A stretch of 64,000 nucleotides of DNA. Origin: an uncultured delta proteobacterium (GTDB taxonomy: Bacteria; Desulfobacterota; Desulfobacteria; Desulfobacterales; B30-G6). A program made the translations under genes and the position numbers. How positions within the stretch are numbered: position 1 is the first letter of the stretch; the number at the start of each line of letters is the position of its first letter. Where the stretch lies: the NCBI GenBank assembly GCA_963744665.1, contig CAVUUM010000026.1, positions 97,270 to 161,269 on the forward strand, read 5' to 3'. Below, piece by piece: positions 2,898-58,878 of the stretch. Below the pieces are notes generated by a model that saw nothing but the letters and a program-made list of their open reading frames with translations, did no database searches and had not been told where the DNA came from.

Positions 2898-3838
2898 TTT
2901 TCAGCCTTGCGAAGACCCTCGAGCAGGTTTCGTATGGTATTCTCGTGTACCCTGTCCCATGCCCGCGGGCTGCTGTTGGCAGTGTGGGGTGCCAGAAGGC
3001 AGTTGTCCAGGACCCGCAAGGGACTGTCCGCCGGCAAAGGTTCTTCTTCAAATACATCCAGAGCGGCACCGGCGATGCGGTGTTGCTGCAGAGCATCTAT
3101 CAAAGCAGGTTCTTCCAGAACCGGACCGCGTGAGGTGTTGATCAAGTATGCGTCGGCTTTCATCAGCTCAAGCTGTTTCTTGCCGATAAGGTGGTAGGAT
3201 GTGTCGTTGAGGTCCGCGTTTAGGCTGACAAAATCCGCCGTGGCCAGAAGTTTTTCCAGTGAAACAACCTCCAGGCCTGTAGTCGCCACGAAGTCATCGG
3301 GCAGTTCCACAATATCATTGCCAAGAACCCGCATCCCGAAACTTTTGGCGCGCCGCACAACGGCCTTGCCGCAATCCCCCACTCCCACGACACCCAAAAC
3401 AGATTCGCCCAGGGCCATCAGGCGGGGTTTTTCCCACCGGCCCTGCCGGATATCCCGATCCAGCCACGGCAGTTTGCGGGCAAACGTCAATATGTATCCC
3501 AGTACCGTATCCGCCACCGGTTCGGAAAAGGCATTGCGGGTTCTACACACGGGTATACCCCGTTGAGCAGCCGCCTCCGCATCAATGGAATCAATCCCCG
3601 TGCCCCATTTGGAAATTACCTTAAGCCGGGGAGCTGCTGCCAGGACACGCGCAGTAATCCGGTCATCACCGCAAATAATGCCGTCAATGTCTTTCACGAC
3701 CTCAAGTAATTCTTCTTCGCTCAAGCGCTCGTTGACCCGGGCACCAATCAGTTTAACACCCTCCTCGGCAAGACGCTGCCGATAGGTTTCCATCACAGGG
3801 AGAAAATATGGAGCGGAAACCAGAACATTCCAAGTCAT
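2894..3838 (-). CDS. D-isomer-specific 2-hydroxyacid dehydrogenase (phosphoglycerate/glycerate dehydrogenase-like)
   Basis: 314-aa ORF with VLGVVGVGDCGKAVVRRAKSFGMRV (NAD fold) and INTSRGPVLEE...ALDVFEEEP...APH. A 4-nt ATGA overlap joins it to the downstream gene. Confidence 0.8.
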   Translation of the reverse strand: MTWNVLVSAPYFLPVMETYRQRLAEEGVKLIGARVNERLSEEELLEVVKDIDGIICGDDRITARVLAAAPRLKVISKWGTGIDSIDAEAAAQRGIPVCRTRNAFSEPVADTVLGYILTFARKLPWLDRDIRQGRWEKPRLMALGESVLGVVGVGDCGKAVVRRAKSFGMRVLGNDIVELPDDFVATTGLEVVSLEKLLATADFVSLNADLNDTSYHLIGKKQLELMKADAYLINTSRGPVLEEPALIDALQQHRIAGAALDVFEEEPLPADSPLRVLDNCLLAPHTANSSPRAWDRVHENTIRNLLEGLRKAEK

Positions 3839-14021: not shown

Positions 14022-14138
14022 CGCAGCAAGCTGCGAGGAATCTTCGACCGTAAGGAATTCTGTCTAATTTAGATTCGCTCGCTAACCCCGCAGCAAGCTA
14101 CGGGGAATGCGCTCGCTATTTCGGTTCAAGGCGTGCAA
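14022..14138 (+). repeat. REP/MITE-like intergenic repeat, family A, copy 1
   Basis: It contains the hairpins cctcgcagcaagctgcgagg and ccccgcagcaagctacgggg. An ~85-nt core is nearly identical to 30270..30360. Related copies lie at 16724..16812 and 53050..53135 in reverse orientation. Confidence 0.8.
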
Positions 14139-14279: not shown

Positions 14280-14843
14280 ATGAAAAAAAACAACATTATC
14301 AAAGCAGCGACCCGCTTTTTTGCCTCACAGGGTTTTGACGGAACGACAACCAAGACAATCTCAGACAAAGCCGGTGTAACAGAACCACTTCTGTACTATC
14401 ACTTTTCCGGAAAAGATGAAATCTACACATCGATTTTTGATTCGATCTTTTCTGAATACTTCAACCAATTGGACGTGTTGAAAACGGAAACCAATACCCT
14501 GTTTGAAAAAATTGAAAGCCTTTTTCTGGTACACTTCACGCTTGTCAAAAAAATGCCCAATGAAATGGCTCTCATTTTGTCTCCCCGACCCGCAAAACTA
14601 AACGACCCGGACAACATTTACACAAAAAACACAAAACAACACAAGAAATGGCTGAAATCCTATATCAGCGACTGTTTAAAGAAAGGGATCGATTCCGGTG
14701 AGTTTAATCCCGTTCAGATTAAAGAGACCACCAGCATCATCATCATGATGCTCAACGAAATCCTTCATAAAAAAGAATATAAGGACACCCAAGCCATGCG
14801 GGATTCTGTGATAGGTTTCTGGCGAAAAATTCTGGTGTCCTGA
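14280..14843 (+). CDS. TetR-family transcriptional regulator
   Basis: 187-aa ORF with the N-terminal HTH AATRFFASQGFDGTTTKTISDKAGVTEPLLYYHF. Confidence 0.85.
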   Translation: MKKNNIIKAATRFFASQGFDGTTTKTISDKAGVTEPLLYYHFSGKDEIYTSIFDSIFSEYFNQLDVLKTETNTLFEKIESLFLVHFTLVKKMPNEMALILSPRPAKLNDPDNIYTKNTKQHKKWLKSYISDCLKKGIDSGEFNPVQIKETTSIIIMMLNEILHKKEYKDTQAMRDSVIGFWRKILVS

Positions 14844-15114: not shown

Positions 15115-16500
15115 CTATATGAGTCCTTTGCTCTCTAATCGCTTGACACAATTGATGTCAATATCCAGGATTTTGGCAATACGAATTTTAGCCTCAATTC
15201 CCTTCACACATCCAGGTAGTGGGGAAAGACTGCCCATCTCCAAATCTTCACGGATTTCCGTCATTACCACCGGATCGGAAAGATCATGAACTGAAACACG
15301 CAACTTGTCTGCCACATAGGCCTTGGCGTCGTTTATCTTCATACCACGGGTCATCTGCATTCGTGCCACCAGATCTCCGGCAGCCCGCATTCCACCCATG
15401 CCCGAGGCAATAGCGTGGGAAATAGCCATGCCTAACGGATCACCTACGCCAACCTACAACCCGTCGAGCCGGCAGATTTCCACCATGGCCGCAGAGGCGC
15501 GGGATGTAATGTCCACCGGCGGGTGATTGGTCATGGGAACACCGCCGACGCCCATACCCATGTTCGCATGGATCGGAATGTTGGCCACGTCACAGCAGGC
15601 TTTGGTAAAAGTAATGGCCCGAGCCAGATTCCAGGGGCAGGAATGATTGGTTTTGACATTGACCACCGGTCCAAAAATTGTCACGCCGGCTTTTTCCGCC
15701 ATCCTGACTTGATCATGGGCATACATACCGGCCAAGCGTTCGCCCTGGTACCTCAAATCCCCGTGCATTCCTAGAACAAATTCCCCTGCCATTCCAAGTT
15801 CAATACAGATACCGGGATACTTTTCATTCAGAATTTCAGAAGCCTTCAAACCGGCAAGGAAATCAGCATCCCCCGCCGCACCTACGGTATCAAGATTGAC
15901 ACCGTCTGCTCCGGATTCAACCATGGCGCCGGCAACAAAGACAATATCTTTGACAGCGGCCTCTACTGAATTCTCATAAGATTTTTGAACTTCGTCAATC
16001 TTTCCCATGGTCAACAGTTCCGAGGGATTTTGAAAAGGACCGTCCGGTTGGGTATACAAACCCAGGTTCGGCATGGCACCGTAGAAGAGTGGCGGGTGCG
16101 TCACCATCAATACTTGCTCCAGAACGGTTTGTTCCATGCTCACAATCGGTTTGACCTGCTTGTAGCTGTAGTCGATATGACCCAGTTCAAGGGTATCCGC
16201 TCCCAATAGCTTTTCATAGACCTGCAATGCTTGAACACGATGGACATCGATGGCAGTGCGCATCATCTTGATGGGTGCACCGTCATAAGAAAGTACGACT
16301 TCATTACCAGGTTCCACACCCACAAAACGATACGGTGTCATAAAAAGATCGAACAGGTATAGCAGCGCTTCTTTTGAAAGAGGGGCAATCCTGCCGTATT
16401 TGGCAGCATTTTCCGCACCTTCAACCAGATCGCTCATGAGTTGTTTTTCAGTCATTTCAACGGGAAACCCATCACCCATTCGTGTCATTATTTTTCCCAT
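15115..16500 (-). CDS. mtbB: Dimethylamine:corrinoid methyltransferase with in-frame UAG (pyrrolysine) at 15456..15454
   Basis: ORFs 15454..16500 and 15115..15429 share one frame and are separated only by TAG plus 8 sense codons. The joined sequence reads ...[45 protein letters not shown]. That matches my memory of the region around the Pyl codon in Methanosarcina MtbB. The N-terminal part ([40 protein letters not shown]) is also MtbB-like. The joined length is 461 codons. Confidence 0.85.
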
Positions 16501-16581
16501 AAGATCTCCTTTTTCACGTTATTTAAAACCTGGTCCTTTGGGCTAGGTCAGAGATATTTGGCTATGCCGAATGCGATAGTT

Positions 16582-16870
16582 ACTTAAATCCGAAGCACGA
16601 AATTCGAAATCCTAAACGGTTCGACAGGCTCACCACCCCGAGCAACGTCGAAAGGCAATACTTAAAGATCCAAATTCGAATGATCAAAACAAGACCGTGG
16701 AGATACAAGTTCGAGCACTATGTTTGAACCGCCATAGCGAGCGCATTCCCCGTAGCTTTAACCCCGTAGCTTGTCGAAGATCCCGGTTTATCGGGGCTGC
16801 GAGGATCTTCATTCATTTGAGCATTTGATATTTGGATTTGTTTTGTATTTCGATATTCGGATTTAGAATT
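16582..16870. repeat. Composite palindromic intergenic element (terminal inverted aaatccgaa/ttcggattt) enclosing family A copy 3 (16724..16812)
   Basis: The left arm (taaatccgaagcacgaaattcgaaatcc...caaattcgaatgatcaaaacaag) and right arm (gatatttggatttgttttgtatttcgatattcggattta) are imperfect reverse complements. A fragment of it (atttcgtgcttcg) recurs near 47455. Confidence 0.6.
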
Positions 16871-16949
16871 TATCATACGCTAAATGTGCATAATATTAAT
16901 CCCTTATAGGGTCGAATCAGTAGCAGGCCCTTTGGACCCGGGTATTTAT

Positions 16950-18449
16950 CTATTTGGAGACTTTGAGTTCCTTTTCTGCTTCCTCCACAATCGCTCGCAT
17001 GGTGGCCAGAACATCATCGGGCAGCGGGTCAGGCTTGTGGGTTTCTAAAATACGCCGCGCCTCTTCCGAAGCCCTTGCATATATATCTGTACTGCCGGAG
17101 GCCTCCCATTCTTCCCGCATCCTGCGATCGATGAGTTTAGGCTGGGATTGAGACCGCATGTGTTTGAACGTGGCATCATGACTGAGGAAATTTTTCCCTA
17201 TCCCAATCTCCCGAATGACGTCCACTGCCAGCGTTTCGTCGTTGACGGGGATTCCATGCAGCAAGAATTTGATCATCTTGGCAAATTCGTTGTCCATAAC
17301 CAGTTGGCCGAAATCGATGGTCATGCCCATTTCGATCATACCCAGGCCGTAAATCAGGTTGGCACCTGCCAACGCTGGTAACAGGCCTGTGATGGTTTTC
17401 TCGTGACCGGACTGGGCATCACAGACTTTGCTGTCGCCCTACCCGCCAGCGACCCAGCTGGGAAGCAGATAGTAGATGGACATTTGAGCCACCGCGGCGT
17501 TGATCAAAGCACACTCAGGAGATCCCACGGATGCGGCAGCCAGCCTCAGATCCATGGCCGTCGTGGAACTGCCGTAAATAAATTTCGCTCCTTTACGGGT
17601 ACACTGACTGAGCACAAGTCCTCCAAGGATTTCCGCGTTATGATCCACCAGGGTGCCGGCCAAGGTCACTGGAGACGAGCCACCGGCCATGGCCATGGAT
17701 AAAACATTTACGGCCAAATCTGCCCGAGCGGATTCCATGATAATTTCACAGCTGTCCTTAACAAGCTGCAGCGGACTCACCGGGCAGGTAATAAACGAAA
17801 TAATGGGACGCTCTTTCAGTTTTTCCTTGCCGCCGACAATGGCAGCGGCCATTTCAACAATTTTTTTGGTCAAATATCCATTGCCGGACCCCATGAACCC
17901 ATGTTTGGTCGTGTTGGGCAGCCAGGCTTCGGCGTTATGAAGCTGCACCGTCTGCGTCGGCACATCACTGGCGCCAACGGCCCGTTCATAAACATCGATT
18001 TCGCTCAGATAGTCGGCAATCAGAGCCGAGGCAGCCACATCCGCCTTGGTCGTCTCCCGATGCTCCCCCGTGTATGGGTCGTTAATAAAAACGCCTTCCC
18101 CAAAATTAGTGAAGCCTACGCGGTTTTTTTCCATAATAAAGTCGTTTTTTGAATCACGCCCGTACAACACAATTTTTGGCGGTGCTGAACGGATGGCGTC
18201 CTCAACCATGTGAGGGGGGAACTTGGCTATACGGTTCTTTTTGTCGATGACAGCGCCTCCGCCATCGAGGACAGCCAGCGCCTCTTCATCCTCGAAAAAA
18301 AGACCGGTCTTTTCCAGAACCTCAAGTGTGGCCAGATGAATTTCATCCATTTCCTCATCGGTAAAGACCTTGAATTCTAGGCCACCATCCCTGCTTTTTC
18401 CTGCTCGCATATTGCGTCTCAAGAAATCACCTCCTTTTGGTTTTACCAA
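16950..18449 (-). CDS. mttB: Trimethylamine:corrinoid methyltransferase with in-frame UAG (pyrrolysine) at 17441..17439
   Basis: ORFs 17439..18449 and 16950..17372 share one frame. I read the codons across the gap as ...[50 protein letters not shown] with no other stop. The joined length is 499 codons, with the UAG at codon 337. That size and position fit my memory of archaeal MttB. Confidence 0.85.
17385..17426 (-). other. 10-bp stem-loop in the mttB mRNA, starting 12 nt 3' of the in-frame UAG
   Basis: In the sense RNA, GUCUGUGAUG (17426..17417) pairs with CAUCACAGGC (17394..17385). That gives 9 Watson-Crick pairs plus one G-U and a 22-nt loop. The G-U position is a C-A mismatch on the opposite strand, so the structure is specific to the sense strand. 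Confidence 0.4.
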
Positions 18450-19588: not shown

Positions 19589-21595
19589 ATGACAGTTGTA
19601 TTGGGTATCGATACGGGCGGGACATATACAGATGCGGTTCTGATCAATTATGAGAACGGCAAAGTCCTGTCGAGTGCCAAGTCTTTGACGACGCACCAGG
19701 ATCTTTCCACCGGTATCCATGCGGCTGTCACGTCCGTTATGACCATCAATCGCAAAGCTATTTCCCCCAAAAAAATCTGCCTTGTGGGTCTGTCCACGAC
19801 CCTTGCTACCAACGCCATTGCAGAAGGGCACGGCGTCCCTGTTTGTCTTCTATTGATAGGGTATGACCGGGACTTGATCCATCAATACCGTTTCCAACAT
19901 GCCTTGGGAACACCCAATGTGGTCTATCTGCAAGGTGGGCATGACCAGCAGGGCAACGAACGTCGACCCCTGAACGAAGATGCCGTCAAAAATACCATTT
20001 TAAAGTGGCGAAAAAAAATCAATGCCTTTGGCGTCTCGGGCTATTTTGGTGCATTCAACCCGGAACACGAATTAAAGGTCAGAACATGGATAGAAGACCT
20101 TACAGATCTTCCGGTGACCTGCGGTCATGAACTTTCCACGCGTCTGGACGCCATCCGCAGGGCAACAACCGTGGCCCTGAATGCCCGATTGATTCCCATC
20201 ATACAAGATCTGATATTCAATGTCCGTGCCACCCTGAAAGCCCTGTCCATTCCGGCACCACTGATGGTGGTAAAGGGTGATGGAAGCCTGGTTCAAGCGG
20301 ATTGGGCCTTGAAGCGGCCCATCGAAACGGTCCTTTCCGGCCCGGCCGCAAGCGCACTGGGGGCCCTGAAACTCACCGGGGGAAAAAATACATGGGCTGT
20401 GGACATGGGCGGAACCACCACTGATATTGTCGAGCTCATTGAAGGTGCGCCGTCGCTCAATCCGAATGGAGCCTGTATTGGCGGATGGCGGACCATGGTT
20501 GAAGCCGTAGATGTTCACACCATAGGACTTGGAGGAGATAGCCATGTCCGTGTGTCTTCCGAAAACCAGTTGGTTATAGGTCCTAATCGTGTCATACCGC
20601 TATGCAAACTGGCCAGTGAATACCCGGACAAGGTAATGGGTACACTGAGAGCCCTTGGTAATTCAGACAAATCTGATCTGGATGCTACCCAGTTTCTGAT
20701 TTCGGGAAAAGCAGAACAACCCCAACTGTCTCAAAACGACGCAACACTATTGGCAAAATTGGATGATGGACCCCAACCGCTGACAACCATCACCGGCCCC
20801 GCTGCTTATGCAGACCCATGGATTTCAAAACGTATCCAGAACCTTGCAGAAACAGGTCTAATTCAATGCGCAGGCTTCACTCCAACGGATGCGCTGCACG
20901 TCCTGAAATGTTTTCAGGAATGGGATGCAGAGGCATCTCTACTGGCGGGCAAACTTCTATCCACCCATCTTGGATTGCCCACAGAAGTATTCTGCAAACA
21001 GGTGGTGGAAACCGTGTCCAGAAAGACCGCAACAGCCATTGCATCCAAGGCTATCACAGACGAAATGGGGAATCCTGATTGGAAACAGGTGCAAACTGAC
21101 GGGTTTCTGCTGAATAAAGCCCTCAAACAAGACCAGAAAGGAAAATTGATTCCAGAAATCAGATTGAAGCATCCCCTGGTCGCTCTGGGTGCGCCGGTAA
21201 CAGCATATATGCCCGGAGCCGCAGATATCCTGAGGACCGGGCTTTCAATTCCTGAATTTGCGGAGGTAGCCAACGCTATCGGAGCTGTCAGCGGTCAAAC
21301 GGTTTTACGACTCAGAATCCGCATCCGACCCATAAGCGGAAGTCAAAACGTCCGGCTTCTTTCCCCTCACAGCCCCAGGGATTTTTCTAATATTGAAGAA
21401 GCCGTTGAATATGCCATGGGTCACATGACACCCCTGGCAGAAGATATGGCACGTCAGGCCGGTGCCAAACATGTGCAGGTGCAGGTAATCCGAAAAGAAA
21501 AAAAGGCCAGAGCGAAAGGAAACAAAGAGGTATTTCTTGAGACCGAATTGACTTTCATAGCCCTTGGAAGACCGGCCATGGCATTTAAACAGTAA
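19589..21595 (+). CDS. Hydantoinase/oxoprolinase-family (ASKHA-fold ATPase) protein
   Basis: 668-aa ORF. The N-terminus VVLGIDTGGTYTDAVL and the later AVDMGGTTTDI are the two phosphate-binding motifs of the hydantoinase A family. Confidence 0.7.
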   Translation: MTVVLGIDTGGTYTDAVLINYENGKVLSSAKSLTTHQDLSTGIHAAVTSVMTINRKAISPKKICLVGLSTTLATNAIAEGHGVPVCLLLIGYDRDLIHQYRFQHALGTPNVVYLQGGHDQQGNERRPLNEDAVKNTILKWRKKINAFGVSGYFGAFNPEHELKVRTWIEDLTDLPVTCGHELSTRLDAIRRATTVALNARLIPIIQDLIFNVRATLKALSIPAPLMVVKGDGSLVQADWALKRPIETVLSGPAASALGALKLTGGKNTWAVDMGGTTTDIVELIEGAPSLNPNGACIGGWRTMVEAVDVHTIGLGGDSHVRVSSENQLVIGPNRVIPLCKLASEYPDKVMGTLRALGNSDKSDLDATQFLISGKAEQPQLSQNDATLLAKLDDGPQPLTTITGPAAYADPWISKRIQNLAETGLIQCAGFTPTDALHVLKCFQEWDAEASLLAGKLLSTHLGLPTEVFCKQVVETVSRKTATAIASKAITDEMGNPDWKQVQTDGFLLNKALKQDQKGKLIPEIRLKHPLVALGAPVTAYMPGAADILRTGLSIPEFAEVANAIGAVSGQTVLRLRIRIRPISGSQNVRLLSPHSPRDFSNIEEAVEYAMGHMTPLAEDMARQAGAKHVQVQVIRKEKKARAKGNKEVFLETELTFIALGRPAMAFKQ

Positions 21596-21789: not shown

Positions 21790-22587
21790 ATGTTAATTGT
21801 TGGAGAACTGATCAATGCAAGCCGAAAGACCATTGGCACGGCCATTGAAATAGAGGACGGGGAAAGCATAGCAAAAATCGCCAGAGATCAGGCCGAAGCC
21901 GGTGCTGATTTTATTGATGTCAATGCCGGTGTTTTTGTCGGTAAAGAGCCTGAATACCTGGAATGGCTGGTGAAAACTGTTCAAGCAGCCGTCGATAAAC
22001 CCTGCTGCATAGACAGCCCGGACCCCAAGGCCATCGAAAAAGCGCTGGCTGCCCACAAAGGCATAGCCATGATCAATTCCATATCCCTGGAAAAAGAACG
22101 CTATGACACCCTGATGCCCATCATTGCCGGAACCGATCTTAAGGTGGTAGCCCTCTGTATGAGCGACGAAGGCATGCCGGAGACCACCTCGGATCGAATG
22201 AGAATTGCCGATAAACTGATCAACGGTCTCATCCAGAATCGTATCCCCTTGGAAAATATCTATGTAGATCCACTGGTTCAACCCGTATCCACGAACAACA
22301 ACTTTGGAGTGGAATTTCTGAACGCCATCCAACAAATTATGAATACATTTGACGGTATTCACACGGTTTGTGGTCTTTCCAATATCTCATTTGGCCTGCC
22401 TCTCAGAAAATTTCTGAATCAGACATTTATGAGCATGGCCATTGCCAAGGGACTTGATGGGGCCATAGTCAACCCGCTGGACAAGAAAATGATGGCCAAT
22501 ATCATTGCAGCAGAAGCCCTTGCCGGCAGGGATGATTATTGCATGTCATACCTCAAGGCCTACCGGGCAGATCTCTTTGCATCTTAA
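21790..22587 (+). CDS. Methyl-corrinoid:tetrahydrofolate methyltransferase (pterin-binding, MtrH/AcsE-like)
   Basis: 265-aa ORF with GELINASRK, AGADFIDVNAG, INSISLE and VCGLSNISFGLP. These are hallmarks of pterin-binding (DHPS-like) methyltransferases found in bacterial corrinoid methyl-transfer systems. Confidence 0.75.
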   Translation: MLIVGELINASRKTIGTAIEIEDGESIAKIARDQAEAGADFIDVNAGVFVGKEPEYLEWLVKTVQAAVDKPCCIDSPDPKAIEKALAAHKGIAMINSISLEKERYDTLMPIIAGTDLKVVALCMSDEGMPETTSDRMRIADKLINGLIQNRIPLENIYVDPLVQPVSTNNNFGVEFLNAIQQIMNTFDGIHTVCGLSNISFGLPLRKFLNQTFMSMAIAKGLDGAIVNPLDKKMMANIIAAEALAGRDDYCMSYLKAYRADLFAS

Positions 22588-22637: not shown

Positions 22638-23279
22638 ATGTCTGAAATAATTTACCAGGAAGCCATGGAGGCTATCCTGAAGGGTGATGTGGACAAAGCC
22701 GTTGACACCGCCAAAAAGGGGATCGACATGGGTATGGATCCTTTGGACCTGATGAACAACGGTTTCATCTCCGGCATCAATGAAGTGGGCGACCTTTTCG
22801 AAACCGGCAGACTTTTTCTGCCCCAGCTGGTTATGTCCGCCTCGGCCATGGAAAAAGCCACGGAAATTATCAATGCGGCCATTCCAGAAGGTAAGGGAAC
22901 CATATCCGGGAAAGTTTTGGTGGGGACGGTCGAGGGCGACGTACACGACATTGGAAAAACCATTGTCGTGGCCCTGTTCAAAGCCAATGGCTTCGATGTA
23001 CTGGATATCGGAAGGGACGCACCCATCGAACGTTTTATTGACGAGGCTGAAAAATTTGGAGCCGATATTATCGGTTCGAGCACCCTTTTAACCACCACCA
23101 TGGCCGTGCAGAAACAGATCGAAGAGGAGTTAAAAAAAGCCGGTATAAGGGATAAATACAAAACCCTTGTGGGCGGTGCTCCTGTAACCCAACGATGGGC
23201 AGACCGAATCGGTGCCGATGCCTATGCCCAGGATGCAAGCGACGGTGTGCGCAAGGTTAAGGAATTGTTAGCAGGCTAG
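22638..23279 (+). CDS. Corrinoid (B12-binding) methyl-carrier protein, MttC/MtbC-like
   Basis: 213-aa ORF with an N-terminal helical cap and GTVEGDVHDIGKTIV (DxHxxG) plus SSTLLTTTM and GGA. It ends in TAG (23277..23279). Confidence 0.85.
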   Translation: MSEIIYQEAMEAILKGDVDKAVDTAKKGIDMGMDPLDLMNNGFISGINEVGDLFETGRLFLPQLVMSASAMEKATEIINAAIPEGKGTISGKVLVGTVEGDVHDIGKTIVVALFKANGFDVLDIGRDAPIERFIDEAEKFGADIIGSSTLLTTTMAVQKQIEEELKKAGIRDKYKTLVGGAPVTQRWADRIGADAYAQDASDGVRKVKELLAG

Positions 23280-23382: not shown

Positions 23383-23456
23383 GGGGAGTGGATCGCAATG
23401 GGATCGTGTGGACTCTAAATCCACATAGACGGGTGCAACTCCCGTACTCCCCGCCA
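23383..23456 (+). tRNA. pylT: tRNA-Pyl, anticodon CUA (amber suppressor), CCA encoded
   Basis: Folded by hand. The acceptor stem pairs GGGGAGU with ACUCCCC. The anticodon stem is 6 bp (UGUGGA/UCCACA) with loop CUCUAAA, placing CUA at 23415..23417. The variable loop is 3 nt (UAG). The T arm is ACGGG-UGCAACU-CCCGU, without the canonical T-loop sequence. The discriminator is G, followed by CCA. A long anticodon stem, short variable loop and single base between acceptor and D stem are the known oddities of tRNA-Pyl. Confidence 0.9.
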
Positions 23457-23533: not shown

Positions 23534-24376
23534 ATGACAATCTCCTGGACACAAACACAGATACGACGACTGAATGCCTTGAATGCCCCGGGCGCGGCAT
23601 TGAAAAAGACCTTCGATGACAAACCCGCGCGTGAGAATGCTTATCAAGCCTTGGAAAAATCACTGGTGATGACTCAGCGACAGCAGTTGGCGGAATTTCA
23701 AACCACGCCCGGCTGTCCCGAACTTTGCCGGCTTGAAACCAGGCTTGTCCGTATTCTGACGCAAGCCGGATTTGCCCAGGTAACGACCCCCATCATCATG
23801 TCCAGGGGACTGTTGAAGAAGATGTCAATCGATGCAAAGCACCCGCTCAATTCCCAAATATTCTGGCTCCAGGACGATAAATGCCTGCGACCGATGCTGG
23901 CGCCCCATCTCTACTATCTCCTGGTTGACCTGCTCCGCGTTTGGGAACGACCTGTACGAATCTTTGAAATTGGCCCCTGCTTCCGAAAAGAATCCAAGGG
24001 AGCGAAACACGCCGGTGAATTTACCATGTTGAACCTGGTTGAAATGGGTACCCCCGAGAAAACCCGGAAAGAAAGAATCCTGAATCTGGGCGCACGTGTG
24101 GCCACGGCAGCAGACGTGAAAGACTTTCGTTTTGAGACAGTGTCCTCGGAAATATACGGCGACACCATCGATATCGTCGCCGGAAAAGACAATCTCGAAA
24201 TTGCCTCTGCCGCCATGGGGCCACATCCTCTGGATCGGCCATGGAAGATAAGTGAATCCTGGATCGGAATCGGTTTTGGTCTCGAACGCCTCCTGATGGC
24301 CTCCCACCAATCCAGGAACCTTGCCAGGTTCTGTCGAAGCCTGTCTTATTTAGACGGCGTCCGGTTAAATATTTGA
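23534..24376 (+). CDS. pylSc: Pyrrolysyl-tRNA synthetase, catalytic C-terminal polypeptide (bacterial split form)
   Basis: 280-aa ORF with class II aaRS motifs LRPMLAP, FEIGPCFRKES and IGIGFGLERLL. It lies immediately 3' of the CUA tRNA. Confidence 0.9.
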   Translation: MTISWTQTQIRRLNALNAPGAALKKTFDDKPARENAYQALEKSLVMTQRQQLAEFQTTPGCPELCRLETRLVRILTQAGFAQVTTPIIMSRGLLKKMSIDAKHPLNSQIFWLQDDKCLRPMLAPHLYYLLVDLLRVWERPVRIFEIGPCFRKESKGAKHAGEFTMLNLVEMGTPEKTRKERILNLGARVATAADVKDFRFETVSSEIYGDTIDIVAGKDNLEIASAAMGPHPLDRPWKISESWIGIGFGLERLLMASHQSRNLARFCRSLSYLDGVRLNI

Positions 24377-24479: not shown

Positions 24480-25676
24480 ATGAAAGTAGCGATCATCGGT
24501 GGTAAACTTCAAGGGCTTGAAGCGGCATATCTTGCCGAAAAAGCCGGCTGGGATGTGACAATCATCGATCGGGCGCCCGATGTGCCGGCTGCGGGTCTCT
24601 GCCACCAGTTTTTGCTTGCCGACATTACCAACCAAACAGACTTGAAGCGCTTTCTGCAACCGTTTGACCTAATCATACCGGCCCTGGAGAACCATGACGC
24701 TTTAGCGTGTCTCCAAAATTGCGCACAAAATGACAGAACACGCATTCTTTTCGATTTCGATGCCTATGCCATCACCTCCTCCAAGATTGAATCGGACAAA
24801 CTGCTCGCCGGCATCCACATCCCCACCCCATCATCCTATCCCGACGGTGGTTTTCCTGTTATCGTCAAACCAAGTAGAAGCAGCGGCAGCAAGGGAATTT
24901 GTGTTGTTCATGATTCAAAACAACTTGAATCTCATCTTGCAACGGCACCCGGAGAGCAGGTCATTCAGAAATTTGTCCATGGCCCCTCATACTCCCTGGA
25001 AATCATCGGCTACCCGGGAAACTATTGTCCCCTCCAGGTAACCGAACTTGAAGTGGATCCGGTCTTTGATTGCAAGCGGGTGATTGCCCCCTCGGGTCTT
25101 TCCCAAAAAATGATTGCGGATTTCGAACATATCGCCGTCACCACTGCCAACGCCCTAAAATTAAAGGGTTTGATGGACGTAGAAGTCATTCTGGATTATG
25201 AGGTACTGAGAGTTCTCGAAATCGATGCGCGCCTCCCCAGCCAGACACCCATAACCGTGCATACCTCCACCGGTGTCAACATGCTTCAGTTGCTGGCAGA
25301 GCAACATTGCCGGCCGTCACACAATGGGGCGGGTATTGCTGTTGCCCAGAGAGGTGTCGTGTATGAGCATATCAGGGTTAGCGGCAGCACATTGGTTGTC
25401 ACGGGTGAACATGCCATGGCATCCGCAGGCGCTCTCCATCTGGTAGAGGATTTTTTCGGTGCCGATGAAGCCATCACCTCCCAGACGGGCAACCGGACGG
25501 ATTGGGTGGCGACATTGATCATTTCCGCAGAAAACAGAACCACGGCATGGGAGAAACGGGAGGCGGTTATCGCCGATATTATGCGTTTTTTTAATCTCGA
25601 CACCTACAGGGACCACAGCCCGTTCCATTATGGTGCTGACGAGCCATCCCTGACGTTGAAAGGATCATTCAAGTGA
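24480..25676 (+). CDS. pylC: Pyrrolysine biosynthesis ATP-grasp ligase
   Basis: 398-aa ORF. MKVAIIGGKLQGLEAAYLAEKAGW, FDFDAY, VIVKPS and LEIDARLPSQTP run parallel to my recollection of Methanosarcina PylC. Confidence 0.85.
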   Translation: MKVAIIGGKLQGLEAAYLAEKAGWDVTIIDRAPDVPAAGLCHQFLLADITNQTDLKRFLQPFDLIIPALENHDALACLQNCAQNDRTRILFDFDAYAITSSKIESDKLLAGIHIPTPSSYPDGGFPVIVKPSRSSGSKGICVVHDSKQLESHLATAPGEQVIQKFVHGPSYSLEIIGYPGNYCPLQVTELEVDPVFDCKRVIAPSGLSQKMIADFEHIAVTTANALKLKGLMDVEVILDYEVLRVLEIDARLPSQTPITVHTSTGVNMLQLLAEQHCRPSHNGAGIAVAQRGVVYEHIRVSGSTLVVTGEHAMASAGALHLVEDFFGADEAITSQTGNRTDWVATLIISAENRTTAWEKREAVIADIMRFFNLDTYRDHSPFHYGADEPSLTLKGSFK

Positions 25677-26521
25677 CCCGGCTGACATCAAGTGATATTC
25701 AAGGCATTTCCGAAGAACTGCCCGCATACGAATCATCACTGATGAAAAAAACCGGTTGCTCCCTGCGACAGCTTGCCTGTCGGGCAATGAAAGTGACTGA
25801 AATAGATGTCCAGACATCTTTGGAACACACCCTTGTGGGTGTCATACCCATGACATCGGGTGGCGGCGTATTAAAAGGATTTTGTGGGACTGTGGCAAAG
25901 ATTGTCAACCACATCGGTTGCAGAGCCTTTGCTACACGGAGTACGGATGCTTCGGGTATCGCCGAAGCAGTGGAAAAGAAGGCCGACATCCTCATGTTTG
26001 CCGATGAAAATCGGTTTGTCGCCCTTGATATGCAGCACCGCAAACTCATGGACAATGCCGATGCAACCGGCAGGGGCTTCGTGGCGGGTCTGAACCTCAT
26101 GGCAGAGAGCTTGAACGATCAAAAGGTACTTGTCCTGGGATGTGGTCCGGTGGGGCAGAGCGCGGTGAAGGCCCTGGCAAAAACGGGGTGCCGTATTTCT
26201 GTCTACGACATCGAAACAAAAGCATACGACCGCGTATCAACGGAATTCAAGAACGACCCGGATATTGAGATTCAATTTTTGTACAACCTTGATCTGGCAT
26301 TGCATCAACACGCACTCATGGTCGATGCATCCCCGGCGGGCGGTTTCATTGGGGCGCGGCATATCAGTCCCCATACGATTATCAGTGCTCCCGGTATGCC
26401 TCTTGGCCTTGACAGGTCAGCGCTGGCAGCCATCGGCGGCAGACTCCTCCACGACCCGCTTCAGATCGGGGTGGCAACCATGGTGGTCGGTGCTTTAGCC
26501 CGAACATTTCATGAAATTTGA
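25673..26521 (+). CDS. pylD: Pyrrolysine synthase (NAD-dependent dehydrogenase)
   Basis: 282-aa ORF with IPMTSGGG, ILMFADENRF, VLVLGCGPVGQSA and SAPGMPLG, as in PylD. A 4-nt overlap joins it to pylC. Confidence 0.85.
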   Translation: MTRLTSSDIQGISEELPAYESSLMKKTGCSLRQLACRAMKVTEIDVQTSLEHTLVGVIPMTSGGGVLKGFCGTVAKIVNHIGCRAFATRSTDASGIAEAVEKKADILMFADENRFVALDMQHRKLMDNADATGRGFVAGLNLMAESLNDQKVLVLGCGPVGQSAVKALAKTGCRISVYDIETKAYDRVSTEFKNDPDIEIQFLYNLDLALHQHALMVDASPAGGFIGARHISPHTIISAPGMPLGLDRSALAAIGGRLLHDPLQIGVATMVVGALARTFHEI

Positions 26522-26593: not shown

Positions 26594-26935
26594 ATGAAAT
26601 CAAAAAAACCAGCCAAACGATTTTACCGCAAACGGGTGGAGCTTTTCCGTCTGATCGAGAAGATAAAACTCTGGCCAGCCAGAAGCGGTCTCCTCCACGG
26701 TATCAAATCCATCGACATCATGGGTGACCAGGCCCGTATCACAACCCATTGCAATAAAACATTCATGGTGAACAACTCCCGAAACAGCCGCGCGGCAAGA
26801 TGGCTTCGCAACAAATGGTTCAATGGGGCCTGCGGCGCATGCGGTGTCCCTGAGTGGAAACTAGAAAAATATGCGTCCACACAATTCAGACGTCACTTTG
26901 GGTCACAATTGCTGAAAAAGACTGGACCCGAATAA
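26594..26935 (+). CDS. pylSn: Pyrrolysyl-tRNA synthetase N-terminal tRNA-binding polypeptide
   Basis: 113-aa basic ORF (KRFYRKRVELFRLIEKIKLWPARSGLLHGI...HCNK...ARWLRNKW...CGACG). Its size, position after pylD and Cys/His pattern fit bacterial PylSn. Confidence 0.75.
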   Translation: MKSKKPAKRFYRKRVELFRLIEKIKLWPARSGLLHGIKSIDIMGDQARITTHCNKTFMVNNSRNSRAARWLRNKWFNGACGACGVPEWKLEKYASTQFRRHFGSQLLKKTGPE

Positions 26936-27115: not shown

Positions 27116-27805
27116 CTATGACACACCAAATCCCGCTTCAATTTTTGGATCATAGGCAGCCTTTCGAGAAGGACAATCCTTGCGGTCACAAAGCTGGCAA
27201 CTGATAAATGGAACCTCTGTGGGAAAATAGATACCGGACACCGATTTTGCAGGAATCATCAGGCAGCTGCTGTTAAGGGAAACATTGATGGGGGTTTTCC
27301 CATCCCCAAACAAAGCAAACAAAGGCCGCTGTTCTTCCAGAGGCCAATCTGTCAATGACCCCGGGCTCATAAAGGACATACCCTCGAGGCCATACCCCGC
27401 CTGCAGCGTTTGTTCGAGATAGTTTCGCACGGTACTCAGGGCAATGTTGCCGATCACATCCAGATAGTATTTCACCACCAGGTCTTTCTGGGCATCCATC
27501 TGCTCCAGATAATGGCTTCCGATAGTAACAACAAATGGGAACACCCGCTCCACCGCTGCCAGGTTTTTTGCCAGCACCCGGCTCCTGAAACGCACCCCAT
27601 CAATACCGATGAGTTGGTCCTGCTTTTCATCGATATAGCAAACCCGGTAGACCGCTTTTGCCCGAATATCCGGCAAGATCGTCTGGATGAGAGTCTTGAC
27701 TTCGTCCCAGCGTGCACCCCTTTTCAGGTGAAGCTGGCGCCTGATTTCCCCAAAAGGCAAAGATAAAGGTATTTTTTCAAGAATATGCATTTTTTCTTCC
27801 AGCAT
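27116..27805 (-). CDS. Methionine-synthase activation-domain-like protein (corrinoid reactivation domain) with a C-terminal Cys cluster
   Basis: 229-aa ORF. SPGSLTDWPLEEQRPLFALFGDG...INVSLNSSCLMIPAKSVSGIYF resembles the MetH AdoMet/activation domain. The C-terminus reads CQLCDRKDC. It ends in TAG. Confidence 0.55.
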   Translation of the reverse strand: MLEEKMHILEKIPLSLPFGEIRRQLHLKRGARWDEVKTLIQTILPDIRAKAVYRVCYIDEKQDQLIGIDGVRFRSRVLAKNLAAVERVFPFVVTIGSHYLEQMDAQKDLVVKYYLDVIGNIALSTVRNYLEQTLQAGYGLEGMSFMSPGSLTDWPLEEQRPLFALFGDGKTPINVSLNSSCLMIPAKSVSGIYFPTEVPFISCQLCDRKDCPSRKAAYDPKIEAGFGVS

Positions 27806-27855
27806 CCGAACATCTATATCCGCTCAAAATATATTTTCAAGCGTTTTATCACGTT

Positions 27856-28946
27856 AGGGGACGTTCCTTTATATGTTGACAATCTAAAATTTGTCTGCAA
27901 TAAAACACAAATGCCACGCCAATCAAGAATAGACGCCCCTGGGGCTTTGCATCATATTATTGTGAGAGGCATCGAAAAAAAACCAATTTTTCGAGATGAT
28001 GCCGATAGAGATAACTTTTTGGAGCGATTGAAAAACATCTTGAAAGATGACGCAGCATTTTGCTTTGCATGGTCCCTAATGCCCAATCATGTTCATTTGC
28101 TTTTGAAAACCGGAAACACATCGATCTCAACTATTATGAGACGGCTTCTTACGGGTTACGCAGTCTATTATAATCGCAAACATGATCGTGCGGGCCATCT
28201 ATTTCAGAACCGATACAAATCGATTCTTTGCCAGGAAGACACATATCTTTTAGAACTGGTAAGATATATCCACTTGAACTCCCTCCGAGCAGGTATTGTA
28301 ACGGATCTTGAGTCGCTTGATAGATACAAATACAGTGGTCATGCAACAATAATTGGTAACGATAAGAACGACTGGCAAACTACTGAATATATTCTTGCTA
28401 TTTTTTCTGAAAGGCTATCACAAGCGCGCCGGAGATACCGGAAATACATACAAAAAGGAATATCTGCGGGGAAAAGACCGGATCTCGTTGGTGGTGGCCT
28501 TGTCAGGAGTGTTGGTGGCTGGCACGCTCTCAAGGATTTGAGAAGAAGAAAAGCGTACATGAAAGGAGATGAACGGATCTTGGGCGACAGTGATTTTATC
28601 AAAAATGTCCTTCAATCCTGTAGGGATGAATATGAACAAAAATATTTATTAAAAGCCAAAGGATACACTTTTGATACCGTTGTCGCTCGTGTCGCCGAAG
28701 TATTAGGCATGGAAAAAGCAGACGTTTTGTCAGCAGGTAGACAACCCCTACGGGTAAAGGCCAGAAGATTGTTATGTTTCTGGGCATCACGAGAACTCGG
28801 TATAACCATGGTGGACTTGGCCAAACGTTTAAAAATATCACCGTCGACCGTAAGCCAATCAGCTAGCCGTGGAGAAAAAATCGCAAAAGAAAGCAATTTA
28901 AGATTATTATGATGCAACATTATCAACTTATCAAGGAACGTCCCCT
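27856..28946 (+). mobile_element. IS200/RAYT-like unit: Y1 transposase gene bracketed by a perfect 13-bp inverted repeat
   Basis: aggggacgttcct at 27856..27868 and its exact reverse complement aggaacgtcccct at 28934..28946 flank the CDS 27911..28912. Confidence 0.6.
27911..28912 (+). CDS. REP-associated tyrosine transposase (IS200/Y1 HUH) fused to a C-terminal DnaA-C-like HTH domain
   Basis: From the Met at 27911, MPRQSRIDAPGALHHIIVRG...PNHVHLLL (HUH)...LVRYIHLN (catalytic Tyr region). The C-terminus RLLCFWASRELGITMVDLAKRLKISPSTVS is HTH-like. The ORF-track start at 27785 is probably too far upstream. Confidence 0.75.
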   Translation: MPRQSRIDAPGALHHIIVRGIEKKPIFRDDADRDNFLERLKNILKDDAAFCFAWSLMPNHVHLLLKTGNTSISTIMRRLLTGYAVYYNRKHDRAGHLFQNRYKSILCQEDTYLLELVRYIHLNSLRAGIVTDLESLDRYKYSGHATIIGNDKNDWQTTEYILAIFSERLSQARRRYRKYIQKGISAGKRPDLVGGGLVRSVGGWHALKDLRRRKAYMKGDERILGDSDFIKNVLQSCRDEYEQKYLLKAKGYTFDTVVARVAEVLGMEKADVLSAGRQPLRVKARRLLCFWASRELGITMVDLAKRLKISPSTVSQSASRGEKIAKESNLRLL

Positions 28947-30254: not shown

Positions 30255-30375
30255 TTGAAGATTCCTTACAGCAAGCTACGAGGAATCTTCGACCGTAAGG
30301 AATTCTGTCTAATTTTGATTCGCTCGCTAACCTCGCGGCAAGCCACGGGGAATGCACTCGCTGTTGCGGTTCAAC
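30255..30375 (+). repeat. REP/MITE-like repeat family A, copy 2
   Basis: acgaggaatcttcgaccgtaaggaattctgtctaattttgattcgctcgctaacctcgcggcaagccacggggaatgcactcgct is nearly identical to 14043..14127. Confidence 0.8.
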
Positions 30376-54271: not shown

Positions 54272-56155
54272 ATGAACCAAGCACTTTATGGATATTACGG
54301 CAAGCAGCTACGAGTTTCGCTTGATACCGGTGAGATAAAAACAGAAGACATCGACATTGAGATATTGAAAAAGTATATTGGTGGCGTAGGGTACGGAGCC
54401 CGTGTGCTTTACGATGAGCTTGAAAAAGGTATTGATCCGCTTTCTCCAAGCAATAAAATCGTTTTTGCCACCAGCCCTCTGACGGCCAACAAAATACCCG
54501 GCGGGGGCAGTATCATGGTCTGCTTCAAATCGCCGTTGACACACGTCTGGGGGGAATCCAGAAGCGGTGGAAATTTCGGCCCTGACCTTAGAAAAGCCGG
54601 TTATGATGCCCTCATCATTGAGGGCGCTTCAGCTGAGCCGGTCTTTCTTTCTATAAATGACCAAGAAGTTTCCCTTCATCCTGCCGGCCATCTGGAAGAA
54701 TAAAACCGTCACAGAAAAGACTGACTTGATCAGGGAAACTTTGGCTGACACAAAAATTTCCGTGCTGTGTATCGGACCTGGCGGAGAAAAGCAGGTCAAG
54801 TTTGCCACCCTTATGGTAGGTCACCGTGCTGCTGGAAGATGCGGTGGCGGCGCCGTCATGGGATCCAAAAATCTTTTGGGCATCGCCGTCAAAGGTTCAT
54901 GCCAGGCACCAGTGGCAGACCCGGACAAATTGAAAACGGCCATCAAAAACGCCATGGATGTTATCCGAGCCAGCGAAACCGCCGATGGATTCCGCGAGCA
55001 TGGAACAGCTGGTGACATAGGCGGCAATGATGCTGGCGGTGATTGGCCCACGAAAAACTGGCAAGCCAATTCCTGGGGAAAAGGCGAAGAAATATATGAT
55101 GCCTTTTTTAAAAATCATCTGGTCAAAAATAACGGATGCTACCTGGGCTGCCCCATTGCCTGCGGCAGGATCGCCGATGTAAAATCGGGCAAATTTGAAA
55201 CCCCGGCCCATGAAGGCAGCGAGTACGAGTCTCTTTCAGCATTTACGGCCTTCGTGCTGAACGAAAATGTCGAGTCGGCCGTTCACAGTACCTACCTGTG
55301 TAATGAATACGGTATTGATACCATAACTGCGGGTGCCATGATAGCATTTGCAATGGAATGCTATGAAAACGGTATGTTAACAAAGGAGGATGTTTCCGGT
55401 CTGGATCTCAGCTGGGGAAATCCGGATGTCCTGCCCGTATTGGTCAAAATGATGGCTCTCAGGGAGGGCATCGGTAACACGTTGGCCGAAGGCGTTAAAA
55501 AAGCATCCGAGCTGATTGGAAAAGGTTCCGAAGCCTTTGCCGTTCACATAAAAGGTCTTGAAGGGCCGGCCCACGACGCCAGATCTGGCAAGGCCCTGGC
55601 AATAACCTATGGTACTGGCAAACAGAGGCATGTGCCATATCCAGCCCTTGGAGGGCATGGCCTGGGATTCCGGCAAAATGGATTTTGGTTTAATGAAATA
55701 TGGTCTTCCCGACCCTGAAAAGGTAGACAGGTGGGATGAAAAAGGCAAAGGGTAAGGCGTTAAAATGCTGCAGGATGGACTCGTGGTACCCGACATATTG
55801 AATACCTGCAAATTCTTCATGTACGCCGATATTTCGCTAGAACATCTGGCAGATATCTACTCGGCAGCTACGGGATGGGAAACCAGCGGTCAGGATCTGA
55901 TGGCAGTGGGTGAGCGTGTACTCAACCTTCAACGAATGTTCAACATACGCGAGGGCCTGCAGAGAAAAGATGACCGCCTGCCTGAAAGAGCCGCCCAGCA
56001 ACCAGCTTTTGGATTCTACGAAAATGAAACGCGGTGTGCGATCCGAGACTTTGACAGCATGCTGGATGAGTACTATGAAGCCCGGGAATGGGATAGTAAA
56101 ACAGGTGAACCTTCAAAAGAAAAACTTGAAGCAGCTGGGACTCGAGAATCTCTGA
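54272..56155 (+). pseudogene. Tungsten/molybdenum aldehyde:ferredoxin oxidoreductase (AOR family), disrupted
   Basis: AOR-like sequence continues through three reading frames (ORFs 54272.., 54657.., 55765..). I infer frame changes near 54690 (PAGHL|WKNKT), near 55625 (ITYGT|ANRGMCH) and near 56125 (EKLE|LGLENL*). There is also an in-frame TAA at 55753..55755. Confidence 0.75.
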
Positions 56156-56161
56156 TCGCTT

Positions 56162-56399
56162 ATGGAAATCAAGGTATATCTATATACAGTTCTAAAGAAA
56201 TACGGCCAAGGCAAAATAGATGAAAACAATACCGTTCATTTGTCAGAACCCTTGTCCCTCAAGGAATTGTCAGCCTACTTTAATTTTCCGAAAAAACCAG
56301 GAAAAACCTTCCTGGTGAACAATACCCCCCAGCCCGAAGAGTATATTGTGAAAGGATGGTGATAGGATTAAGATCTGGGGTTTTATTTGTGGAGGATAG
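56162..56399 (+). pseudogene. MoaD/ThiS-like small sulfur-carrier protein, frameshifted near the C-terminus
   Basis: The ORF ends ...EEYIVKGW*. A shifted frame continues ...KDGDRIKIWGFICGG* with the canonical terminal Gly-Gly (TAG at 56397..56399). Confidence 0.55.
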
Positions 56400-57035: not shown

Positions 57036-58360
57036 TTAGTACCCAAAATAGATACCGGGCAGCCACAGGGAGATCTGGGGAAACAACATACAAACGACCA
57101 GACCCAGTACCATGACCAGTACAAAGGGCACAATGGAACGGTATATATCCGCCAGGGACACCTCCTTGGGCGCCATGGCTTTCATCAGAAACAGGTTATA
57201 GCCAAAAGGCGGCGTCATATAAGCAATCTGGCAGGTAATCGTATACAGAACACCGTACCAGATCGGGTTGTAACCCAGTTCGATAACCAGGGGCACATAC
57301 AGCGGTGCAACAATGATCAGCATGGCCGTGTCGTCCAGAAACATACCCATCAGGATGTAGGACAGCTGCATCATCACGAGTATCCCAAAGGGACTGAGAC
57401 CCCATTGGTCCAGAAACAGTCTTTTTATGGCATGCACGGCACCAAGACCGTCAAAAACGGCACCAAAGCAGAGTGCTGCCAGAATCACCCACATGAACAT
57501 GCAGCTGACGCTCAGGGTAAGCTTTAGTGTCTCTTCCAGCACCTGCCGGTTTAATCGTTTTTTGAGAAAAGCCACAAGGGTCGTTACCGCCGCACCGGCT
57601 GCAGAACACTCAACCAGACTGGTGATCCCCATCAGAAACAGGCCTGTCATGGAAAAAATAATGACCAGGGGAATGATCCCGGCCCTGAGCAGTCGAAATT
57701 TTTCTCCCCAGGTGATTTGCGCCAGCTCTTCTTTGGATAAGGCTGGACCCAGGTGCGGCTGAAGTCTGCATCGAATAGCGATGTAAGCAATAAACAAGAC
57801 CGCTAACAAGAGTCCGGGGAAAACACCGGCCAGCCACAGCTGGCCCACCGGTTGTCTGGCGATCATACCGTAAAGAACCAGGACCACGCTGGGGGGCACC
57901 ATGATCCCCAGGGAACTTCCCGCCTGGATGACGCCGGTAACCATGACCTTGTCATATTTTCGCTTTAGCATTTCAGGCATGGCAAGGCTGGCCCCGATGG
58001 CCATGCCGGCCACACTCAAGCCGTTCATGGCTGATACGGCAACCATGAGCCCCATGGTCCCGATGGCAAGCCCGCCGTGAATGGCCCCATCCAGACATGA
58101 AACATTCTGTAAAGATCGCTGGCTATTCCCGACTCGGAAAACATATATCCCATGTATATAAACAGCGGCAGCGTCAGGAGCGGATACCAGTTCAGCAGGG
58201 CAAAACTCGCGTTAAAGGGCATCTCCGCCGCACCCTCTCCCCATAGCATCAATGCAAAAACTGTTGCCACGCCACCAATGGCACCAAAAACACGCTGCCC
58301 GGTGAGAAGCATGAGCATCATCGAGAAAAAAATCAAAACGGCAATTATTTCATAACTCAT
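57036..58360 (-). pseudogene. dctM: TRAP transporter large permease (DctM), frameshifted
   Basis: ORFs 58025..58417 and 57036..58055 are consecutive DctM sequence in different frames. The junction HVWMG|AIHGGLAIGTMGLMV sits at a G-run near 58085. Confidence 0.75.
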
Positions 58361-58878
58361 GTTGTTTCTTCTCCCCCTTGCCGTATGCTTTTTCCAGGTC
58401 CTTGAAAAATGTCGCAATAGCCTGCAATAGCATCAGCACAATCCCTATTCCCATAATCAATTTTGATGGGGCCACACAGGGTGCCCATGCAGTATAATTT
58501 ACTTGCTGGTATATCGATGGCATATTCAGGCTGGAAAGGCCCCCCCAGAGGAGAAACACCAGATAGAACAAGCAGGAAAGGGCATGGTTATCGCATCCAT
58601 CACCGCTTGTTTTTTCTCTGACCATCGTCCATAGAGAAGATCCATTCTGACATGTCCTTTAAGAATCATGGAGTACCCCCCACCAAGCAGATAATAGGCA
58701 GCCATGGTGAACTGTGCGATCTCCACCGCCCATATATGGGGCTTGTCAAATAAGGTTCTGGCAATGGGTTCGTATAGCAGGACCCCGATCATAGCAAAGA
58801 CAAGATACATGGAGAACTTGCCGACAAATTTGTTCGTTGCATCGACACGCGTACGAAGACTTTAATTGCTTTAGGCAT
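58350..58878 (-). pseudogene. dctQ: TRAP transporter small permease (DctQ), frameshifted
   Basis: The ATG at 58878 is preceded by AAAGGGG. DctQ-like sequence is split over at least three frames (MPKAIKVFVR | VDATNKFVGKFSMYLVFAMIG... | ...LFYLVFLLWGG...). Confidence 0.65.

Follow-up and report, generated by a model that had tools for sequence, protein, structure and literature searches.

The locus described here raises the question whether a UAG codon inside a bacterial mtbB gene is read as pyrrolysine (Pyl), and whether the full-length product is a dimethylamine (DMA) methyltransferase. It lies in a stretch of 64,000 nucleotides (nt) from an uncultured delta proteobacterium of the Desulfobacterales (assembly GCA_963744665.1, contig CAVUUM010000026.1, positions 97,270 to 161,269 of the forward strand), called the window below and numbered from its first letter. 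We conclude that positions 15115..16500, minus strand, very probably encode a functional, pyrrolysine-containing MtbB.

A conserved UAG within the mtbB gene

A preliminary description of this DNA had proposed that two open reading frames (ORFs) join through the TAG at 15456..15454 into 461 codons, and reading of the ORFs confirmed it. The minus-strand ORFs 16500..15454 (348 residues and the TAG) and 15429..15115 share one frame, and the lone in-frame TAG between them, codon 349, joins them as 348 + 1 + 112 codons. The upstream part ends in EICRLDGL directly before the TAG, and the downstream part starts with VGVGDP. The ATG at 16500 is preceded by a good Shine-Dalgarno sequence, AAAGGAG. The two features at the centre of this study are as follows; dN/dS is the ratio of nonsynonymous to synonymous substitution rates.

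15115..16500, minus strand: mtbB, [dimethylamine--corrinoid protein] Co-methyltransferase, 461 codons, one of them for Pyl (PF09505, TIGR02368, dN/dS)
15454..15456, minus strand: in-frame UAG, codon 349, predicted to be read as pyrrolysine (same column in 93 of 94 homologues)

The joined protein was compared with family models, and a single match to PF09505 (Dimeth_Pyl) was observed across the TAG, with 638.3 bits (cutoff 25) and an E value of 8e-192, covering residues 5-456 of the protein and positions 4-461 of the 463 of the profile. The NCBIfam equivalog model for MtbB, TIGR02368, gave 499.9 bits, above its curated cutoff of 369.1. The trimethylamine (TMA) methyltransferase MttB belongs to a separate Pfam family (PF06253 as against PF09505), and neither of the two window proteins matched the family of the other. 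A search of the PDB by sequence returned no solved MtbB structure. The AlphaFold model of residues 1-348 alone (predicted local distance difference test, pLDDT, 86.8) has a TIM-barrel-like fold; compared with the PDB by Foldseek, it resembled generic TIM barrels (HisF, BHMT, KPHMT; template-modelling scores 0.3-0.43) and had no specific match to MtmB or MttB. Such a predicted fold is consistent with the MtbB family and uninformative on the substrate.

We then searched 5.8 billion proteins for relatives at E<=1e-10. The search returned 3626 matches, and identities are given for the best 120 of them: these have 67-94% identity to the window protein, and nearly all have a length of exactly 348 residues, so that gene calling must have ended at this TAG. 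The JGI name dimethylamine--corrinoid protein Co-methyltransferase is attached to many of the best 120. The closest relatives are thus not sense-codon paralogs without Pyl but ORFs of 348 residues ending at this TAG. They are also a reminder for annotation: gene callers routinely break mtbB and mttB into two ORFs each, and almost all of the best 120 relatives end at the TAG. The exact window sequence is absent from the protein collection, where the best match is 94% identical; in genomes the best is 93%.

When one genome per GTDB species was scanned, 352 stretches proved to encode a relative, and 78 loci were kept. The best 80 of the 352 matches are almost all from Desulfobacterota, and among their carriers are Desulforhopalus singaporensis and Desulfocicer vacuolatum, both in culture, and the Olavius Delta 1 symbiont. 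In the 78 loci, mostly from Desulfobacterales, 93 of 94 homologues (55-93% protein identity) have TAG at the homologous codon. The extension of about 112 codons after it, starting VGVGDP, is conserved in length and sequence in more than 90 homologues. Since one Pfam match spans the TAG and 93 of the 94 homologues have TAG in the same column, the join is not due to chance. The sole exception, L031, has TCG (Ser) at 3204-3206, one base from TAG; variation to a sense codon, decay of this copy and an error of assembly are all possible causes. In comparisons with nine relatives, dN/dS lies at 0.05-0.10 before the TAG and at 0.06-0.17 in the 112 codons after it, and these values show that the downstream part is translated and constrained. 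The proposal of the preliminary description, an MtbB-family gene with a Pyl-encoding UAG, was therefore borne out by the two family scores and by the conserved TAG.

The homologues were placed on an approximate neighbour-joining tree with MtbB of Methanomethylophilaceae (the P0124 cluster) as archaeal reference. The N-terminal ORFs of these archaeal proteins (P0124, P0298) stop at the same alignment column, and the residues that flank the Pyl site are highly conserved with the archaeal enzymes. One homologue, L059 (JBLMXM010000051.1), is 65% identical, has the TAG and is accompanied by a corrinoid gene on a contig that was assigned to a Hyphomicrobiales (Alphaproteobacteria) bin, which points to either a horizontal transfer outside Desulfobacterota or a binning error.

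The window was also scanned in six frames for TAG-bridged ORFs, with TAG treated as sense. The plausible TAG-bridged genes are mtbB and mttB (18449..16950) only, and five other candidates are antisense to annotated genes. The preliminary description saw no mtmB in the window; we found no other TAG-interrupted gene, and a comparison of about 50 window ORFs with Pfam gave no MtmB match.

A match to an Rfam PYLIS model begins at each of the two UAG codons. The match at mttB is to PYLIS_3 (17342..17441, 78 bits), and the match at mtbB is the following:

15357..15456, minus strand: Rfam RF02509 PYLIS_2, 100 nt beginning exactly at the mtbB UAG (88.2 bits, gathering score 36)

In the alignment of 93 homologues, helix 1 of PYLIS_2 reaches 73% pairing, with several positions mostly unpaired, and helix 2 (columns 73-92) reaches 91% with a single covarying pair, so that covariation gives the structure weak support. 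Across the same homologues, at 55-93% protein identity, the codons GCC GGA GAT CTG GT (15365-15384, minus strand) are nearly invariant at synonymous sites, and they coincide with the second hairpin, helix 2, in which GGA GAT CTG is invariant. This invariance is suggestive. The PYLIS_2 score mostly reflects coding conservation, and we do not claim a functional cis element.

Pyrrolysine genes and the neighbourhood of mtbB

Decoding of UAG as Pyl would call for a dedicated tRNA and synthetase, and genes for both lie 7-11 kb from mtbB, in a cluster ordered pylT-pylSc-pylC-pylD-pylSn.

23383..23456, plus strand: pylT, tRNA-Pyl, anticodon CUA (ARAGORN)
23534..24376, plus strand: pylSc, catalytic subunit of the pyrrolysyl-tRNA synthetase (PylRS), bacterial split form (TIGR02367, 310 bits, cutoff 178)
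24480..25676, plus strand: pylC, straight after pylSc (TIGR03909, 397 bits)
25673..26521, plus strand: pylD (TIGR03911, 240 bits)
26594..26935, plus strand: pylSn, N-terminal tRNA-binding subunit of PylRS (TIGR03912, 132 bits)

The tRNA-Pyl scores below the gathering score of the general Rfam tRNA model, which we believe reflects its atypical architecture.

The genes on the two sides of mtbB and between it and the pyl cluster are these:

14280..14843, plus strand: TetR-family regulator, convergent with mtbB (PF00440; syntenic in L001-L004 and L028)
16950..18449, minus strand: mttB, Pyl-type TMA methyltransferase, with an in-frame TAG at 17441..17439 and ending in TAG (TIGR02369, 766 bits, cutoff 525; PF06253)
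19589..21595, plus strand: hydantoinase/oxoprolinase-like (ASKHA) ATPase (PF05378, PF01968, weak MutL/GlmL match)
21790..22587, plus strand: methyl-corrinoid:tetrahydrofolate methyltransferase (MeTr), pterin-binding, the second methyltransferase (MT2) (PF00809; NF005719, 353 bits)
22638..23279, plus strand: cognate corrinoid (B12-binding) protein, MtbC/MttC-like (TIGR02370, 238 bits, cutoff 215; PF02310, PF02607)
27116..27805, minus strand: small protein weakly similar to the MetH reactivation domain, which binds S-adenosylmethionine (AdoMet) (PF02965, E 7.6e-4, below cutoff; PDB 1J6R, E 0.005)

The mttB gene lies directly upstream of mtbB on the same strand. In homologue loci with enough flanking sequence, a Pyl-type mttB stands immediately upstream of mtbB in 22 of 78 and a corrinoid gene immediately downstream of it in 27 of 79; all 36 MttB matches with at least 55% identity are interrupted by a stop at the Pyl site. 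Four metagenome-assembled genomes (MAGs; L002, L003, L004 and L028), labelled delta proteobacterium or Desulfobacterales, show the complete arrangement in synteny, at 76-91% DNA identity. The tandem of mtbB and mttB in a genome like that of a sulfate reducer, as first described, was thus seen here, and its context is supported by the Desulfobacterota relatives; no dsr, apr or sat genes are present in the window itself.

The spacer between mttB and mtbB measures about 430 nt in the window (16501-16949), whereas L028, L002 and L004 have almost none (about 10 nt). The window spacer includes a 35-nt repeat (16724-16758), of which two more intergenic copies were found at 14095-14129 and 30340-30374. 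These are probably repetitive extragenic palindromic (REP) elements, since the window has a gene resembling a REP-associated tyrosine transposase (RAYT) at 27785-28912.

The closest PDB relatives of MeTr are 4O0Q, 4O1E and 4O1F (E 9e-63), followed by the MeTr of acetogens. The ATPase gene is the first of the plus-strand run that continues into the MeTr, corrinoid and pyl genes, and it is conserved in L002-L004 and L028; we consider its product a candidate factor for activation or maintenance of the corrinoid. Distant homologues of this ATPase also occur near mtbB or corrinoid genes in L029, L055, L058 and L061, and the one in L055 (17560-20400) is fused to DUF1638. The product of 27116..27805, whose gene is syntenic in L002 and L004, may possibly help in corrinoid reactivation, as its weak MetH-like similarity suggests.

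Taken as a pathway, these genes would work as follows. The ribosome would read the mtbB UAG at codon 349 as Pyl, carried by a tRNA-Pyl(CUA) that is aminoacylated by PylSc/PylSn, the split synthetase of bacterial type, and would yield an enzyme of 461 residues. The Pyl-type MttB, co-transcribed, would demethylate TMA to DMA and supply the substrate of MtbB, which, by homology, would move one methyl group of DMA to the Co(I) of the neighbouring corrinoid protein and release monomethylamine (MMA). The pterin-binding methyltransferase would then transfer the methyl group from the corrinoid to tetrahydrofolate (THF), and in the Desulfobacterales cell the reverse Wood-Ljungdahl pathway would oxidise the methyl-THF, with sulfate reduction as the coupled process. 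The specificity for DMA, the insertion of Pyl at codon 349, what becomes of methyl-THF and MMA, and which protein activates the corrinoid are points that we infer. A stepwise module for demethylation of TMA to DMA and MMA is a reasonable reading, drawn from what is known of these families. The route from methylamine to methyl-THF and through the reverse Wood-Ljungdahl pathway, with sulfate as sink, is the published model for marine Deltaproteobacteria (PMC8318568).

Some genes elsewhere in the window are broken. They occupy 54272-56223 (plus strand), 57036-58417 (minus strand) and 59272-60209 (minus strand). One, for an aldehyde:ferredoxin oxidoreductase, is spread over three ORFs in three different frames; the others, for the transporter proteins DctM and DctP, have the look of truncated or split genes. 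The frameshifted genes are either pseudogenes or the result of indel errors of assembly. The mtbB and mttB genes are intact despite them.

Objections and rival explanations

Several observations weigh against a functional, Pyl-containing MtbB. One of them concerns pylB, required for the synthesis of the 3-methylornithine from which Pyl is built. The gene was not found in the 64-kb window by tblastn with Desulfobacterales PylB (best E 1.3); the pyl clusters of the closest relatives, L002, L003, L004 and L028, are also devoid of it, and likewise that of L045. The second is that TAG terminates 9 of the 51 window genes, among them mtbB (15117..15115), mttB (16950-16952) and the corrinoid gene (23277-23279). 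The assembly has frameshifted genes, as said, and the locus has a single corrinoid gene for two genes of the first methyltransferase (MT1), whose product scores 224 bits on the MtbC-specific model, below the equivalog cutoff of 350. No RamA-type reductive activase (RACo/RamA Pfam) was seen among the window ORFs scanned. Finally, we know of no biochemical data for any bacterial MtbB, and several clades of MtbB paralogs exist in Desulfobacterales, so that the substrate of any single copy is uncertain.

In other Desulfobacterales loci (L005, L007, L013, L034, L037-L039, L042 and L071), pylB is present between pylSc and pylC. In the genome studied here it could be located elsewhere, for which 'Ca. 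M. alvus', with pylB 0.7 Mb away, offers a precedent (PMC3941956); the activase may also be encoded elsewhere in the genome. Judged from the window sequence, the completeness of Pyl biosynthesis in this genome is unproven. If pylB were truly absent from the genome, 3-methylornithine or Pyl would have to be scavenged, or a desmethyl analogue inserted. A broader scenario, in which the cluster lost pylB in the subclade of the window, L002-L004 and L028, and/or some of the MtbB copies, possibly this one, act on amines other than DMA, and in which the hydantoinase-like ATPase might replace RamA, appears to us rather improbable.

The use of TAG as an ordinary terminator makes decoding of UAG in this genome ambiguous or regulated. 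Were the mtbB terminator itself read through, the protein would gain 28 residues before the next TAG, and 30 of 92 mtbB homologues from Desulfobacterales terminate in TAG.

The rival explanation that survives best concerns the substrate: the gene would encode a Pyl-dependent paralog of the MtbB family, derived from the radiation of such paralogs in Desulfobacterales, that acts on another secondary or tertiary amine. Several divergent MtbB clades indeed occur per Desulfobacterales genome, with at least three loci each in bin60 and bin36 and a clade at 55-60% identity that carries the motif GMHAAHAV, and the Olavius delta-1 symbiont has six MtbB genes. Furthermore, the window protein is about 45% identical to the representative MtbB of Methanomethylophilaceae, the archaeal reference of this comparison. 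However, the protein passes the equivalog cutoff of TIGR02368, its gene follows immediately on a Pyl-type mttB whose product is DMA, a tandem that recurs in other loci, and the residues around Pyl are largely shared with the archaeal enzymes. We therefore consider another amine unlikely as the substrate; DMA is the one predicted from the sequence.

The TAG could also be a true stop, in which case the gene would be truncated or decaying, or would be two ORFs in their own right, and the cell would lack a full-length MtbB. The ordinary terminators, the missing pylB and the frameshifted neighbours all speak for this, but they have to be set against a TAG that was kept in 93 homologues down to 55% identity, 112 codons that hold their frame and length under purifying selection, a single Pfam domain that spans the TAG, and the tRNA-Pyl and PylRS dedicated to it that are encoded nearby. 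Such a stop is very hard to reconcile with these data.

It is barely credible that the gene is a non-Pyl paralog in which a sequencing or assembly error changed a sense codon to TAG: a non-Pyl MtbB-like paralog with Trp at this site does exist (P0131), L031 has TCG there and the assembly may contain errors, but the window protein shares only 37-39% identity with P0131 and keeps the motifs AMPNLGLY and GMGVGG that P0131 has lost, the same TAG stands in independent assemblies of 77 other loci, and the errors elsewhere in the window are frameshifts (indels) and not substitutions. The conservation of the TAG, the downstream dN/dS and the divergence of P0131 led us to reject pseudogene, sequencing error and non-Pyl paralog alike.

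Comparison with known systems

The reading of the window gene as a Pyl-dependent mtbB is correct, and its arrangement, known in this lineage since 2007, is ordinary; by itself the locus opens no new question. The preliminary description gave MtbB as less commonly reported in bacteria, which is explained by the view of 2014 that mtbB occurs almost exclusively in Methanosarcinales (PMC3941956). This statement is out of date. In 2007, the sulfate-reducing Olavius delta-1 symbiont was reported with Pyl-MtbB and Pyl-MttB, in a count of six MtbB, two MttB and, in agreement with the window, no MtmB (PMC1976440), and in 2021 marine Deltaproteobacteria were reported with Pyl-MtbB and Pyl-MttB but without MtmB (PMC8318568). 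The implied rarity is also contradicted by our scans, in which mtbB is common and multi-copy in Desulfobacterales.

The nearest known systems are those of Olavius algarvensis delta-1 and of marine Desulfobacterales ('Deltaproteobacteria-bbl' and relatives). Their MtbB has the UAG at the same position, and they share with the window a Pyl-type mttB, a corrinoid protein, an MT2 of the MetH family or pterin-binding, and split pylSn/pylSc, with no mtmB reported. In the MAG of the Olavius delta-1 symbiont, one locus (L057) has two mtbB copies that are 66-67% identical to the window protein. The window differs from these systems in its new exact sequence, a pyl cluster without pylB, the single corrinoid gene and the spacer of 430 nt that contains the putative REP element.

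The bacterial systems with Pyl-type MttB (Desulfitobacterium hafniense, Acetohalobium arabaticum, Bilophila wadsworthia) have in common with the window a UAG decoding that depends on pylTSBCD and serves methylamine demethylation, a split PylS, and the use of TAG as a stop elsewhere. In contrast to the present case, the work on them deals mainly with MttB, and in a few instances with MtmB (PMC3941956).

P0131, a metagenomic protein of 463 residues without Pyl, is the only sense-codon paralog recovered. It is homologous to the window MtbB over the full length, including the region past the Pyl site, but has Trp in place of Pyl and has lost several invariant motifs. It may be the MtbB-family counterpart of the non-Pyl members of the MttB superfamily.

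Archaeal MtbB (Methanosarcina MtbB1-3 and Methanomassiliicoccales) belongs to the same family over its full length, has Pyl at the homologous column, in the context DG[LV]-O-[VI]GVGDP, and works with a corrinoid partner of TIGR02370. Apart from its moderate identity to the Methanomethylophilaceae representative, the window protein differs by a deletion of seven residues relative to the archaeal and other clades. Moreover, the window encodes a pterin-binding methyl-corrinoid:THF methyltransferase where the archaeal systems have a coenzyme M (CoM) methylase of the MtbA type, and no methanogenesis genes occur in the window. Compared with these systems, the locus is one more well-resolved case of bacteria of the sulfate-reducer type that encode a Pyl-dependent route for demethylation of TMA and DMA, and it is in favour of the view, already published, that in sulfidic sediments methylamines are not a strictly 'non-competitive' substrate of methanogens.

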